Shown here: positions 57,100-63,362 of the stretch, one piece after another | Layout: every line of letters begins with the position of its first letter | Position numbering within the stretch: position 1 is the stretch's first letter | From: Centroscyllium fabricii | Taxonomy: Eukaryota | Direction of reading: 5' to 3' | DNA length: 64,000 nucleotides | NCBI GenBank assembly: GCA_051313645.2 | Contig: JBNRSN020000118.1 | Coordinates: 1,302,001 to 1,366,000, forward strand | The notes under the pieces: model-generated | What the model was told of the DNA's origin: nothing | Database searches by the model: none | Seen by the model: the letters and a program-made list of their open reading frames with translations, nothing else | Made by a program: the position numbers and the translations under genes

Positions 57100-57203
57100 A
57101 GATGGGTAAGTGCAGAGAGACCTGGGTGTTCTTGTGCACCAGTCACTGAAGCCGAGCATGCAGGTGCAACAGGCAGTTAAGAAGGCAAATGGTATGTTGG
57201 CCT
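57100..57203 (+). mobile_element. CR1-clade LINE, 5' piece of a 5'-truncated copy (ORF2 C-terminal region)
   Basis: Translates as VQRDLGVLVHQSLKPSMQVQQAVKKANGMLA, a typical CR1 ORF2 segment. It joins in frame to FISRGFEY at 62100 once the LTR element and one GGCCT copy are removed. Confidence 0.93.
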
Positions 57204-57503
57204 TGTGGTAACCGTTGTATATATAGTAATTACCACCATAATATTGTACACAATATTATCTGTATGTGTAGTGGTCGGGTGCATGATGCAACTGTCCTGT
57301 GTTGCGACACTGTCGTGGGGCCAGGTCAGCCACACCTCTAACTCCTCCCCTCAGTTGAGTGCCTTATAGATGGGGACTGACCGGCCCCCATTCATTCTGT
57401 ACCTGATGTTCGATCGGAGCGTAGATCCATTGTAAGCTAATAAAAGCCTTGAGTTAAGGTAACTACTCGTCTTTAGTTTTATTAGATTATTGACAATACG
57501 TCA
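57204..57503 (+). repeat. 5' LTR (300 bp)
   Basis: TGTGGTAACC...AATACGTCA; AATAAA at 57439-57444; 11 mismatches and no indels versus the 3' LTR by manual comparison. Confidence 0.97.
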
Positions 57504-57504
57504 A

Positions 57505-57520
57505 TTTTATTAGCTTATAA
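57505..57520 (+). promoter_or_regulatory. Non-tRNA primer-binding-site position, complementary to LTR 57430-57445
   Basis: TTTTATTAGCTTATAA starts one base after the LTR end and pairs with TTGTAAGCTAATAAAA (15 Watson-Crick pairs plus one G.U). There is no TGG-initiated tRNA PBS. Confidence 0.7.
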
Positions 57521-57527
57521 ATTTTAA

Positions 57528-58262
57528 ATGGAGAGCGGCACTGTGAAACCCGAAAAGCTGGACATTAGTCCAAAGGACCCAGCCGCCGCCAACACCTTCG
57601 AACACTGGTTCGGCCTCCTGGAGGCCTACATGGACGCCGTCAAGGCTACAACAGAGGGGAACAAGCTACAGGTTCTCCAATCCAGGATCTCCAGCCGGGT
57701 ATTCTCTTTCATACGTGACACCAAAACGTACCCCGATGCAGTGGCTAAACTGAAGAAATGCTACGAGTGCCCGGTCTACTCAGTCTACCGCAGACATGTG
57801 CTTGCGACCAGACCACAACTACCGAGTGAGTCAAATGAACAGTTCGAGCAGGCACTCCAAGCCATGGTCCGGGTCTGTGGCTGCCAACCATGGATGGCAG
57901 AAGAGGAGGCGAACCTCCTCATCTGTGATGCCTATGTAACAGGACTCAGGTCTGCAGAGGCCCGCCAGCGGCTGCTGGAAAAAGACTCTTTAACTTTGGA
58001 GGAGGCGATCTCTATCTCCAACTCTGTGGAGGGTGCACACCACAAGCTGCAGGTGTACAGCGGCCCAAACCCACAGGCCTACGATGCGTGGGCAGCCCCA
58101 CAACGGGTCGAGACCCCTACGATGGCAGCGGCAGCTGCGAAACCGCCGGCGGAGAGGAGATGCTACTTCTGCGGCCAGTGACTACACCCACGGGTGAAAT
58201 GCCCAGCGAAGACCGCGACCTGCGAGAGGTGCTCCAAGAAAGGACACTATGCCAAGGCCTGC
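57528..58262 (+). pseudogene. gag: Gypsy gag with two CCHC zinc knuckles, interrupted by a stop
   Basis: ATG at 57528 (MESGTVKPEKLD...FEHW). CYFCGQ*LHPRVKC and CERCSKKGHYAKAC both fit CX2CX4HX4C. In-frame TGA at 58179-58181. The true 3' end of gag is uncertain; the frame stays open to 58850. Confidence 0.9.
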
Positions 58263-58486
58263 AGATCAGCCCCGGCGTCCAGCTCCAGGTACAACAGCGC
58301 GGCCTGCGAAAGCTCTCAGGTAAGCTGCAACAGCAGCATGACCCAGCGACGTTCCGGGGGTAGAGTACAAGCGCCCCATCTCCCACCCCGAAGCGGCAGA
58401 GGCTGGCTGCACCCACGGCACACCAAATTCAGCCACGGCCGGCAATGGATGATCCCCCAATGCCAGCATCCCGCCCAGCACGGCTC

Positions 58487-58756
58487 GCTGCGTGTGAATC
58501 ACGGGCACCGCCATCCCAGCCACCGCGGCCAGCTGCATGCGAACCACGGGCACCACCACCATGTCTACAGCGGCCCGCCACGTGCGAACCACGGGTGCCG
58601 CCATCTTGTCCGCAGCGGCCCGCCATGTGCGACCCCCAGGCGCCGCCATCTTGTCTTCAGTGACCAGCCATGTGCGACTCTCCGGCGCTGCTATTTTGTC
58701 CTCAGAGGCCAGCCATGTGCGAACCATGGGCGCCGTCATCTTGTGTACAGCCCCGA
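58487..58756 (+). repeat. 45-bp minisatellite x6 in the gag-protease linker
   Basis: Units such as GCCACGTGCGAACCACGGGTGCCGCCATCTTGTCCGCAGCGGCCC. In the pol frame they give 15-aa repeats A(A/T/M)C(E/D)PxAPPSCxQRP. Confidence 0.88.
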
Positions 58757-58844
58757 CCAGCGGAGGGCTCACACACACACTCACACACTTCGGCCTCAGC
58801 CATCCCGAAAGTCAATCAGGCTAGGCCGCACACCCTATCAAATT

Positions 58845-61740
58845 CCATGATGGGGATTAAAGTCAACGGCCATGTCACGAACTGGCTGTTCGACACCGGA
58901 AGCACATAGAGATTTATTCACCCTGATACAGCGCTGCACTACGGACTGTAGATCCTGCCCACGCGCTACCAGGTCTCCCTTGCTTCACAGTCCCACACCA
59001 CGGACGTCACCAGCTACTGCTCCATCACGCTCACAATTAAGGGCAGCGTGTACCGTAATTTTAAATTGTACATTCTGAAACAGTTGTGCTCCCCAGTCTT
59101 ACTCGGACTGGATTTCCAGTGCCACCTTAAGAGCTTGACAATGGAGTTCGGCGGGACCCTGCACCCCCTCACAGTCAGTAGCCGGGACAATCCCTTCCCA
59201 AAGCGGAGCCCGGCCTGCGGCCTCTCTACCCTGAAAGTCGACCCCCCTTCACTGTTTGCCAACCTCGACCCCAACTGCAAGCCCATTGCTACCAAGAGTC
59301 GGCGTTACAATGCAGGGGACTGGGCATTTATCAGGACGGAGGTCGGGCGTATGCTGAAGGAGGGGATAATTGAAGCCAGCACCAGCACCTGGCGGGCCCA
59401 GGTTGTAGTGTTGAAGACTGGCGAGAAACACAGGATGGTTATCGACTATAGCCAGACCATTAACCGCTACACCGGGCTCGATGCCTACCCCCTCCCCCGC
59501 ATCTCGGAAATGGTTAACCAGATCGCCCAATACAAGGTGTTCTCCACAATCGACCTTAAGTCGGCGTATCACCAACTCCCGATCCGGAAAGCTGACCGCC
59601 CGTACACCACCTTCGAGGCGAACGGTCGGCTGTACCACTTCGTCCGGGTCCCCTTCGGCGTGACCAATGGAGTGTCAGTGTTCCAAAGGGAGATGGACCG
59701 CATGGTTGACCAGAACGGGTTGCAGGCCACCTTCCCCTACCTGGACAACGTGACCATCTGCGGCCATGACTAGCAGGACCACGATGCCAATCCGGCCAAA
59801 TTTCTCGACACGGCGAAACGGCTAGATCTCACATACAACAAAGACAAGTGCATCTTTAGTACAGATTGGCTCGCCATCCTCGGATACATGGTGGAAAACA
59901 GTGTCCTCGGCCCCGACCCACAGCGTATGCGCCCCTTTACAGGAACTGCCGCTTCCTCACAACCCCAAAGCCCTGAAGAGATGTCTGGGATTTATCGCTT
60001 ATTATGCGCAATGGTTTCCCCAGTTCACAGATAAGGCCAGACCGCTCCTCAAGGCTGCCGTATTCCCCCTCTCGGCAGAAGCCCACACGGCGTTCGCTCG
60101 GATTAAGGAAGATATCATCAAAGTGTCCATGCATGCCGTTAATGAGTCCATCCCTTTCCAGGTGGAGAGTGACGCTTCGGACTTTGCCCTTGCCGCTACC
60201 CTGAATCAGGCAGGCAGGCCCATAGCGTTTTCCTCCCGCACCTTACAGTGACCCGAAATTCACCACTCTGCAGTGGAAAAGGAGGCCCAGGCCATCGTGG
60301 AGGCCGTGCGCTACTGGCATCATTACCTGGCCGGTAATCATTTTACCCAGCTCACCGACCAACGGTCGGTCGCGTTTATGTTTAACAATAAACAAAAGGG
60401 TAAAATCAAGAATGATAAGATCCTGCGGTGGCGGATTGAGCTCTCGACTTACGAGTATGACATTCTTTACCGACCAGGCAAACTCAATGAACCCCCAGAC
60501 GCACCATCCAGGGGAACATGCGCCAGTGCCCAGCTAGACCGGCTGAAGGATCTCCACGATCGCCTCTGCCACCCGGGTGTCACCAGACTTGCCCACTTCA
60601 TTAAATCCTTTAGCCTCCCCTACTCCATCACGGAGATCAAGGCTATGACCCGAGAGTGCCCTGTTTGCACCGAGTGCAGACCCCAATTTTTCAGGCCAGA
60701 CACGGCGCACCTCATTAAGGCCACCCGCCCCTTTGAACGTCTAAGCATGGACTTCAAAGGCCCCCTCCCCACCACCGACCGCAACTCGTACTTCCTCACG
60801 GTCGTAGACGAGTTCTCCCGCTTCCCCTTCGCCTTCCCCTGCCCAGATATGACGAGCGCAACGGTGATCAAACACTTCACCACGCTGTTCGCCATTTTCG
60901 GTCTCCCCAGCTACATCCATAGCGACCGGGGGACGTCGTTCATGAGCGACGAACTGCGCCAGTTTCTGCTCCAGAAAGGGGTTGCCTCGAGCAGAACAAC
61001 CAGTTACAACCCCCGGGGGAACGGCCAGGTAGAAAGGGAGAATGGGATCATCTGGAAGGCGGTCACCCTGGCCCTGAAGTACAGAGCCCTTCCAGTGTCA
61101 CATTGGCAGGCAGTCCTCCCTGATGCGCTGCACCAAATACGCTCTCTGTTATGTACGGCCACCAACGCCACACCTCATGAACTTATTTTTTCATTCCCCA
61201 GGAAGTCGACTTCGGGGACAGCCCTTCCACTGTGGCTCATGACGCCGGGGCCGGTCTTGCTTAGGAAGCACGTCCACGGCCATAAGACCGACCCCCTGGT
61301 AGACAAGGTGCAGCTGCTGCATGCCAACCCGCAGTACGCGTAGGTACAGTTCCCGGATGGGCGCGAGGACACCGTCTCCATCAAGGACCTAGCACCCGCC
61401 GGGAGCACCACAGCAGAGCTTCTGGTCGGGCAGCAGCCCGCCCAGACACTATACTTCGGCCACCTCCATCCGCTACACATCGACCACTGGCCGATACATG
61501 ACCCACAACCCACCGGAGGCTGGCCGCCACTACCGCGTGGTCTGGAGCCCTCGCCATGGCCAGCTGCAGACCACAAATCGGATGGCTCGGACTCACCGCC
61601 ACCACCAGCACCTACAGTACCGACACCAGCGCCGCCTTAACCACCATCGGCCCCAACGTCGCCGGTACTACAGGAACCGGAACATTCGACAGAGACCCGG
61701 CGGTCCTCCAGACAGACATGACTGCTGGACAAACTAATCA
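58845..61740 (+). pseudogene. pol: Gypsy pol (aspartic protease, reverse transcriptase, RNase H, integrase), disrupted
   Basis: Protease LFDTGS (D at 58892); RT IDLKSAYHQ, VPFGVTN, YLDN; RNase H ESDASD, EKEAQA, TDQRS; integrase HDRLCH...CPVC, MDFKGP, SDRG, VERENG. Stops at 58907, 58949, 59771, 60249, 61341 and 61638, plus a +1 frameshift near 59935. Ends are approximate. Confidence 0.95.
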
Positions 61741-61780
61741 TGAACTGTTCTGTCCATTCACCCCGCCGGACTTGATTTTC

Positions 61781-61794
61781 AAAGAAGGGGTGAA
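61781..61794 (+). promoter_or_regulatory. Polypurine tract (plus-strand primer)
   Basis: AAAGAAGGGGTGAA directly abuts the TG of the 3' LTR. Confidence 0.88.
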
Positions 61795-62094
61795 TGTGGT
61801 AACCGTTGTATATACAGTAATTACCACCATAATATTGTGTACAATATTATCTGTATGTGTAGCGGTCGGGTGCATGATGCAACTGTCCTGTGTTGCGACA
61901 CTGTCATGGGGCCAGGTCAGCCACACCTCTAACTCCTCCCCTCAGGTGAGTGCCTTATAGGTGGGGACTGACCGGCCCCCATTCATTCTGAACCTGATGT
62001 TCGATCGGAGCGTAGCTCCATTGTAAGCTAATAAAAGCCTCGAGTTAAGGTAACTACTCGTCTTTAGTTTTATTAGATTATTGACGATACGTCA
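61795..62094 (+). repeat. 3' LTR (300 bp)
   Basis: TGTGGTAACC...GATACGTCA followed by TSD GGCCT; about 96% identical to 57204-57503. Confidence 0.97.
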
Positions 62095-62099
62095 GGCCT

Positions 62100-62733: not shown

Positions 62734-63362
62734 TTATGGTGCACACTGTACAGATGTTCATCCTGTTGTGGTGCACATGGTACAGATGTTCATCTTGTTG
62801 TGGTGCACAATGTGCAGATGTTCATGTTTTCGCGCACACTGTACAGATGTTCACCCTGTTGTAGTGCACACTGTACAGATGTTCACCCTGTTATCGTGCA
62901 CACTGTACAGATTTTCATCCTGTTATCGTGCACACTGTACAGATGTTCATCCTGTTGTGGTGCACACTATACAGATGTTCGCCCTGTTGTGCACACTGTA
63001 CAGATGTTCATCATGTTATCATGCACACGGTACAGATGTTCAGCCTGTTATGGTGCACACTGTACAGATTTTCATCCTGTTGTGTTGCACACTGTACAGA
63101 TGTTCATCCTGTTGTGGTGCACACTATACAGATGTTCGCCCTGTTGTGCACACTGTACAGATGTTCATCCTGTTATGGTGCACACTGTACAGATGTTCAT
63201 CCTGTTATGGTGCATACTGTACAGATGTTCATCCTGTTATCATGCACACGGTACAGATGGTTAGCCTGTTATGCACACTGTACAGATGTTCATCCTGTTA
63301 TTATGCACACTGTACAGATGTTCAACCTGTTATTATGCACAATGTACAGATGTTCAGCCTGT
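62734..63362. repeat. Distal diverged remnant of the 32-bp satellite (~20 monomers); right end of the array
   Basis: The satellite resumes as TTATGGTGCACACTGTACAGATG, with marginal-type monomers (CCTGTTAT, 29-bp variants), and ends at ...GATGTTCAGCCTGT. Confidence 0.95.

Follow-up and report, generated by a model that had tools for sequence, protein, structure and literature searches.

How is reverse transcription primed in an LTR retrotransposon whose 5′ LTR is not followed by the TGG that pairs with a tRNA CCA end? The question is raised by a full-length Ty3/Gypsy element at positions 57204–62094 of the window, by which we mean the whole 64,000-nt stretch of Centroscyllium fabricii DNA analyzed here. 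An earlier note on this DNA had observed that the primer binding site (PBS) position pairs with the poly(A) signal of the element's own LTR, and had suggested tRNA-free priming and/or silencing of 5′ polyadenylation. The pairing is real and clade-wide, and the mechanism is probably a variation on known self-priming.

The element and its self-complementary leader

Most of the window is a 32-bp satellite (array at 1–57100 and 62735–63360), broken by a CR1 LINE fragment in which the Gypsy element is nested. The element has TG...CA LTRs, a target site duplication (TSD), a polypurine tract and the gag-PR-RT-RH-INT order of Ty3/Gypsy, all on the forward strand. The TSD is GGCCT (57199–57203 and 62095–62099). 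The 300-bp 5′ LTR (57204–57503) is identical to the 3′ LTR (61795–62094) at 289 of 300 positions, and an AA-ending polypurine tract (61781–61794) abuts the latter. The gag-pol region, from 57528 to approximately 61780, encodes gag with two CCHC knuckles (58161–58262), protease, RT with a YLDN motif, RNase H and integrase. In this copy it is disrupted by several stops and frameshifts, with a stop inside the first knuckle. A block of 45-bp tandem repeats (58440–58750) has the zinc knuckles on one side and the protease on the other.

The gag ATG at 57528 leaves a leader of 24 nt after the LTR, in agreement with the earlier note. A 1-nt spacer (A, 57504) separates the LTR end from the PBS at 57505–57517, which is complementary to 57433–57445 over 13 contiguous Watson-Crick pairs spanning AATAAA at 57439–57444; the 13 pairs previously described over the hexamer, one base past the 5′ LTR and without TGG, are thus confirmed. 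Thirteen pairs with the LTR were reached by none of 5000 leader shuffles and none of 1414 internal 24-mers, and the helix is present in the predicted minimum-energy fold (z = −2.1). The longer duplex of the earlier description (57430–57445 with 57505–57520, 16 pairs including one G.U) exists in the window copy but is not a family feature, since most copies carry a mismatch in the extension and the conserved core is 13 bp. An apparent mutation hot spot at 57518 was rejected because a subfamily accounts for it. Among the 30 closest copies 29 were scored, all with at least 12 pairs. The exact PBS and leader length of the window element recur in 8832 genome copies, and a 21-nt motif of its LTR occurs 76,209 times in this genome. 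Elements of the clade are often nested in each other (L440, L006, L025 and L420). One nested solo LTR sits at the predicted cut site discussed below, with a 5-bp duplication. L440, considered as a U5 duplication, proved to be a nested solo LTR with its TSD.

In the predicted folds, the probability that AAUAAA is unpaired is 0–0.10 at the 5′ end versus 0.75 in the 3′ LTR, where the second copy of the site (62024–62036) leaves AATAAA (62030–62035) exposed. The masking of the 5′ signal proposed earlier is therefore borne out as a prediction. The further claim that the duplex can form only at the 5′ LTR holds for the short-range fold, which is 5′-specific, but the LTR segment itself is also present in the 3′ R.

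Conservation of the pairing and lineage of the clade

We compared 26 representatives, made up of 10 families of this genome and 16 of 80 metagenome loci, some of them close kin. The metagenome loci were chosen for a gag start and enough upstream DNA, and their LTR ends were taken from the CA motif rather than from LTR pairs. Pairing of 11–18 bases is kept in 24 of the 26, compensatory changes included. In 23 representatives, 11–17 perfect pairs begin one base past the LTR-end CA, a result matched by 0/300 shuffles in 22 of them and 1/300 in one. L046 has 18 pairs and a T as spacer, L070 is paired at 14 of 15 positions with a single mismatch, and in L077 no LTR partner for the PBS was found. 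The LTR A-run and the PBS T-run covary in length (three or four A's with three or four T's) and, as these lengths change together, the register of the duplex is fixed. The paired LTR stretch has AAA at its end, and the next bases are mostly GCC or ACC. The covariation check proposed in the earlier note, between the post-LTR 16-mer and the LTR site, accordingly finds compensatory change across distant families. A sister subfamily (L444, L454 and L484) has the site altered to GTGATTAAAA and the PBS altered to match.

Variation within families is less uniform. Of 214 copies with a PBS variant at 57514, 30 were examined, and in 0 of these did the LTR carry the matching change. Post-insertion mutation dominates this test, given 214 variant versus 8832 unchanged copies and their different patterns. 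Minority alleles of two other families are mirrored in L120, L131, L137, L186 and L209, and not in L191, L206 and L117. The G-C pair formed by window positions 57436 and 57514, ten bases in from the end of the duplex, is unchanged in all 23 of 23 families while adjacent pairs vary; it could be a site of protein contact or an alternative start. Predicted folds of the loop vary from family to family, with no conserved U5 hairpin seen.

Most families have AATAAA or ATTAAA as the hexamer; eight have GTTAAA, TTTAAA, GTGAAA or GATAAA and retain the pairing. These eight bear on the proposal that the duplex mainly hides the 5′ poly(A) signal and that the primer is some other host RNA or site. The hexamer position always lies under the duplex and its masking is predicted, as this proposal would have it; yet families with non-canonical hexamers still pair, the register to the LTR end is exact to one base, which masking would not need, and the leader (15–36 nt) is too short for another PBS, with no tRNA site found. 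We regard masking as the main function as quite improbable.

TGG follows the LTR in 0 of the 26 representatives. In an incomplete host tRNA set (22 distinct sequences, 8 types), the PBS is matched over at most 8–9 nt, in the anticodon loop of tRNA-Ile(AAT), and this match is lost in sister families; beyond this internal match, no tRNA 3′ end or half in the set matched the PBS. The lack of a tRNA PBS reported earlier is upheld by both observations, within the 8 types covered. Half-tRNA priming is known in Copia lineages (PMC6317226, in the parts available to us), and a tRNA-Ile(AAT) half cut in its anticodon loop could in principle be the primer here, the host genes matching those 8–9 nt and the LTR match being incidental. 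However, the LTR pairs over 13 nt and the tRNA over just 8–9, and in sister families these same bases covary with the element's own LTR, making a tRNA half exceedingly unlikely.

The integrase of the window element is 72–75% identical to shark and ray proteins and 60–65% identical to proteins from sea anemone, crinoid, argonaut, nematode and many unnamed contigs, which suggests an animal-wide clade; no relatives were found in viral contigs. Neither a chromodomain nor SH3_Tf2-1 was matched in this integrase or in 6 full-length relatives. Both were found in the control L350, its partial chromodomain match falling below the cut-off (E=0.00026). Sushi-type controls, located in the same genome via Pfam SH3_Tf2-1 and Integrase_H2C2 (7 loci), have self-primers of 8–11 bp, mostly with a 1-nt spacer, that lie 155–220 nt from the LTR end and off AATAAA. 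Five sushi-type chromoviruses (L336, L348, L350, L390 and L391) have self-primers of 10–11 bp with compensatory changes between families. A PNMA-gag family of the same genome has a TGG site. A very abundant PNMA-gag Gypsy at L383 (1243–7137) has a 1964-codon open frame and a TGG five bases past the LTR end.

An RT tree of 53 rows, which omits 9 loci and 3 proteins without a long enough RT match, places the window element together with every poly(A)-pairing family in a 40-row clade (support 100/100), which is separate from the TGG group and from 9 sushi-type rows drawn from this genome. The tree places the clade outside the Tf1/sushi chromoviruses, though its branches are long and it lacks both named references and a true root, so that it bears on membership and not on independent origin. 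The earlier view that an element with two CCHC knuckles and no chromodomain does not look like Tf1/sushi agrees with both the domain search and the tree. Its suggestion of an independent case stands as far as a lineage separate from the sushi-type elements of this genome, independent origin being beyond the reach of an unrooted tree. In the alignment of RT rows, YLDN or YMDN stands in place of the active-site YxDD across most of the clade, and a side branch has YLDD. Motifs of the clade had no match in the searched parts of the supplements of PMC6238403 and PMC8556966.

Rearranged copies and the ends of the putative primer

A TATA-like box lies at 57365–57370, 81 nt upstream of the predicted cut. 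Among 11 copies that represent 10 families in this genome, the TATA stands 81–85 nt ahead of the duplex end, where the cut is predicted, in 10, and an initiator-like TCATT, TCAGT or GCATT follows about 30 nt past it in most. The initiator-like TCATTCT of the window is at 57392–57398, and this spacing puts the predicted start of transcription at 57393–57394, 39 nt upstream of the duplex; the start was placed at 57394 ahead of the mapping of copy ends. The 5′ part of R (57394–57432) would then be an unpaired 39-nt extension of the primer. It contains a six-base palindrome (57411–57416), with equivalents in L113, L114 and L006, which lies 15–25 nt upstream of the duplex, is family-specific in sequence and is possibly a dimerisation signal or factor site.

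In seventy genome copies, all of them examined, the LTR end and the PBS continue into upstream R in inverted orientation. A second family has 46 such read-through copies, and the one examined entered U3. Of the 70, 31 enter U3, 17 end at 57404–57420, none at 57395–57403, 11 at 57393–57394 and 11 further upstream, with a per-base stop rate in R three times that in U3. In all 11 copies ending at 57393–57394 the LTR ahead of the PBS is intact, and the allele present is that of the copy's own LTR. Four end at 57393, each with a different join; seven end at 57394 with one common join at a 6-nt microhomology, occur in two LTR subtypes and may reflect few events. At least 5–6 independent events lie behind these ends. 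Their excess over the within-R stop rate has p=3e-8 with all copies counted, 0.0012 with the seven taken as two events, 0.007 as one and 0.03 with the seven dropped. Ends at 57393–57394 are the expected trace of plus-strand synthesis copying RNA from there to the paired segment, and suggest that such copying took place. The inverted-R class as a whole is mixed, since the 31 copies that run into U3 and the 11 that end upstream of the start mean that DNA fold-back explains much of it, and the U3-entering copies need fold-back. L232 and L245, which begin at 57392–57393, were considered as LINE-retroposed mRNA copies and rejected, as they keep full 3′ LTRs.

From the TATA/initiator spacing and the inverted-R ends we infer that the transcript starts at 57393–57394. 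These two observations speak against the Tf1-like 5′ end near 57430 that the earlier note had predicted; its wider proposal of tRNA-free priming and/or 5′ silencing loses that start and keeps the lack of a tRNA PBS, the covarying pairing and the predicted masking. A strict Tf1 geometry, in which the transcript starts at the duplex (57430–57435) and an 11–16-nt 5′ piece is the primer, could draw on the 11 bp of sushi-type controls, on the TTAGT-like, initiator-like context of the G that is invariant in 23/23 families, and on the metagenome families, most of which have no visible TATA spacing. Yet the core pairing is 13 bp, the TATA of the families of this genome lies about 68 nt upstream of the duplex, and the inverted-R copies extend well beyond the duplex to a peak at 57393–57394, with only 3 breakpoints, 0 of them internal, at 57433–57435. 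Strict Tf1 geometry is, in our assessment, unlikely.

At the other end of the putative primer, 31 copies consist of U3, R and the site followed by inverted U5 or more, and 5 of them end at 57444–57447 (0.88 expected, p=0.002), as would be expected if the 5′ end of the template were a cut at AAAA/GCC, between 57445 and 57446. Broken copies were also sampled at chosen LTR positions by patterns with four forced mismatches. Overall breakpoint rates are equal at the cut (27/76209), the start (19/53846) and 57421 (14/35557), and a raw hot spot at the cut was rejected once these true denominators were applied. Internal sequence is joined to the LTR at 13 of 27 breakpoints at the cut, but at 5 of 36 when three upstream sites are taken together (Fisher p=0.0045). 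Inside the duplex such joins make up 1 of 30 examined (of 64), and 6 nt downstream of the cut they are equally frequent at 4 of 30 examined (of 116). Counted per LTR, sense-only joins give p=0.2, which is not significant, and all joins p=0.02; antisense joins are the same copy type as the inverted-U5 class, so the two lines of evidence overlap. In a second family 9 of 13 breakpoints at the cut are self-joins versus 0 of 2 upstream, a count made without whole-genome denominators. L537–539 and L541 were left out of the self-joins. Where a partner LTR was located (L535, L439 and L441) it is intact, so that deletion after insertion may account for some joins. Thirteen of 20 loci yielded no partner, and the exception to intact partners is L532 and L533, which lie 2.2 kb apart and have a deletion in common. 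The kind of breakpoint is therefore a supportive but weak line in favor of a cut at AAAA/GCC.

The same ends bear on priming in trans, in which a short LTR transcript running from the start to AAUAAAA primes an uncut template. Such a transcript could come from early 5′ polyadenylation with trimming, from the second copy of the genome or from the 3′ R. This reading is equally compatible with the covarying PBS and with the inverted-R copies that end at 57393–57394, and the 19 breakpoints at the start site include 4 internal joins. But trans priming predicts strong-stop ends at 57394 rather than 57446, whereas the inverted-U5 copies peak at 57444–57447; internal joins are enriched at and past the cut, and structure prediction gives the cis fold as the one of minimum energy. 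We consider a trans primer conceivable but doubtful.

The reading we favor, and hold to be somewhat probable, is Tf1-like self-priming by the element's own RNA of about 52 bases, the pairing being seen directly and the start near 57393–57394 and the cut at AAAA/GCC (57445/57446) being deduced from copy ends and promoter spacing. Capped RNA would begin at 57393–57394 and fold so that 57433–57445, the 3′ end of the primer, pairs with the PBS. A cut behind the hexamer would free the primer; the cutter, if Tf1 is a guide, is probably the element's own RNase H, and self-primer cleavage by the element's own RT comes from work on Tf2 (PMC5341516, in part). RT would extend the freed 3′ end over the spacer and U5 to 57446, with the remaining R and U5 (57446–57503), the loop of the duplex, as template for minus strong-stop DNA. 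The strand jump to the 3′ R would use the short run of bases from the cut to the 3′ poly(A) site, and a primer ending on the hexamer would leave 10–30 nt of R for this transfer. Hiding the 5′ AAUAAA would be a second role of the same duplex.

Known self-priming systems and significance

To our knowledge, Tf1 is the only element in which self-priming has been demonstrated, and for a few other lineages it has been inferred. In HIV-1, which is tRNA-primed, AAUAAA in R is masked by the 5′ poly(A) hairpin within R-U5. The window clade is like HIV-1 in that its 5′ AAUAAA is predicted to be masked by pairing, and unlike it in that the masking strand is the PBS.

Descriptions of self-priming, cited here from the parts of each paper available to us, cover Tf1/sushi, Tcn1 and TAR (PMC6317226, PMC4600332, PMC5341516, PMC6934838, PMC3601003). 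In Tj1 and Tf1 the partner of the PBS is the mRNA 5′ end (PMC4600332); in the Tf1/Tf2/Tj1 group RT cleavage releases the self-primer (PMC4600332, PMC5341516), and Tf1 cDNA keeps a copy of the primer at its 3′ end (PMC11042837). For Tcn1 (Ty3/Gypsy) and the TAR/Houba/Osr-1 (Ty1/Copia) plant lineages, self-priming is predicted from PBS-LTR complementarity (PMC6317226); these are other lineages in other hosts, and overlap with the poly(A) hexamer is not mentioned in the available parts of that paper.

The window element is like Tf1 and Tf2 of Schizosaccharomyces pombe, Tj1 of S. japonicus and Tf1/sushi in its Ty3/Gypsy domain order and in having a PBS that pairs with a part of the LTR within R, and it has the 1-nt spacer of the sushi-type elements of its own genome. 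Unlike Tf1/sushi, the clade is without chromodomain or SH3_Tf2-1, and its RT is about 28–32% identical and on a separate branch. Its duplex ends on the poly(A) hexamer and measures 13 bp rather than the 11 nt of the Tf1 self-primer, and its loop is 24–70 nt versus 155–220 in the sushi-type controls. Unlike in Tf1 and Tj1, the paired segment would lie 39 nt inside the transcript and not at its 5′ end. By description, the clade is also like the Mag lineage and Steamer-like elements of aquatic animals, being compact, with short LTRs, no chromodomain and the paired CCHC knuckles that are the Mag gag pattern. Steamer has a tRNA-Leu TGG PBS (PMC8905726, in part), unlike the 26 clade representatives. 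A search of the full-text literature found no paper on self-priming in this clade, including the available parts of PMC8220671, PMC3587641, PMC6238403, PMC7472051, PMC13524379 and PMC8905726; earlier mention is possible in subscription papers, GyDB and Repbase, which lie outside this scope.

The broader proposition is that a very large, animal-wide, non-chromoviral Gypsy clade has its own tRNA-free route. A capped primer of about 52 nt would be excised just behind the hexamer, a single helix would determine where the primer ends, mask the 5′ poly(A) signal and set the length of the R available for strand transfer, and both primer ends would be readable from aberrant copies. Our confidence in it is evenly divided. 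It makes exact predictions, namely a cap at 57393–57394, a cut at 57445/57446 and strong-stop DNA of about 58 nt, and it implies that primer ends are mappable from genome assemblies alone. Annotation tools that seek a tRNA PBS will miss or mis-score such elements. If the proposition is true, a widespread animal Gypsy clade is independent of host tRNA and would, we infer, escape PBS-directed silencing by tRNA fragments, and priming and 5′ poly(A) control would be coupled in one helix.
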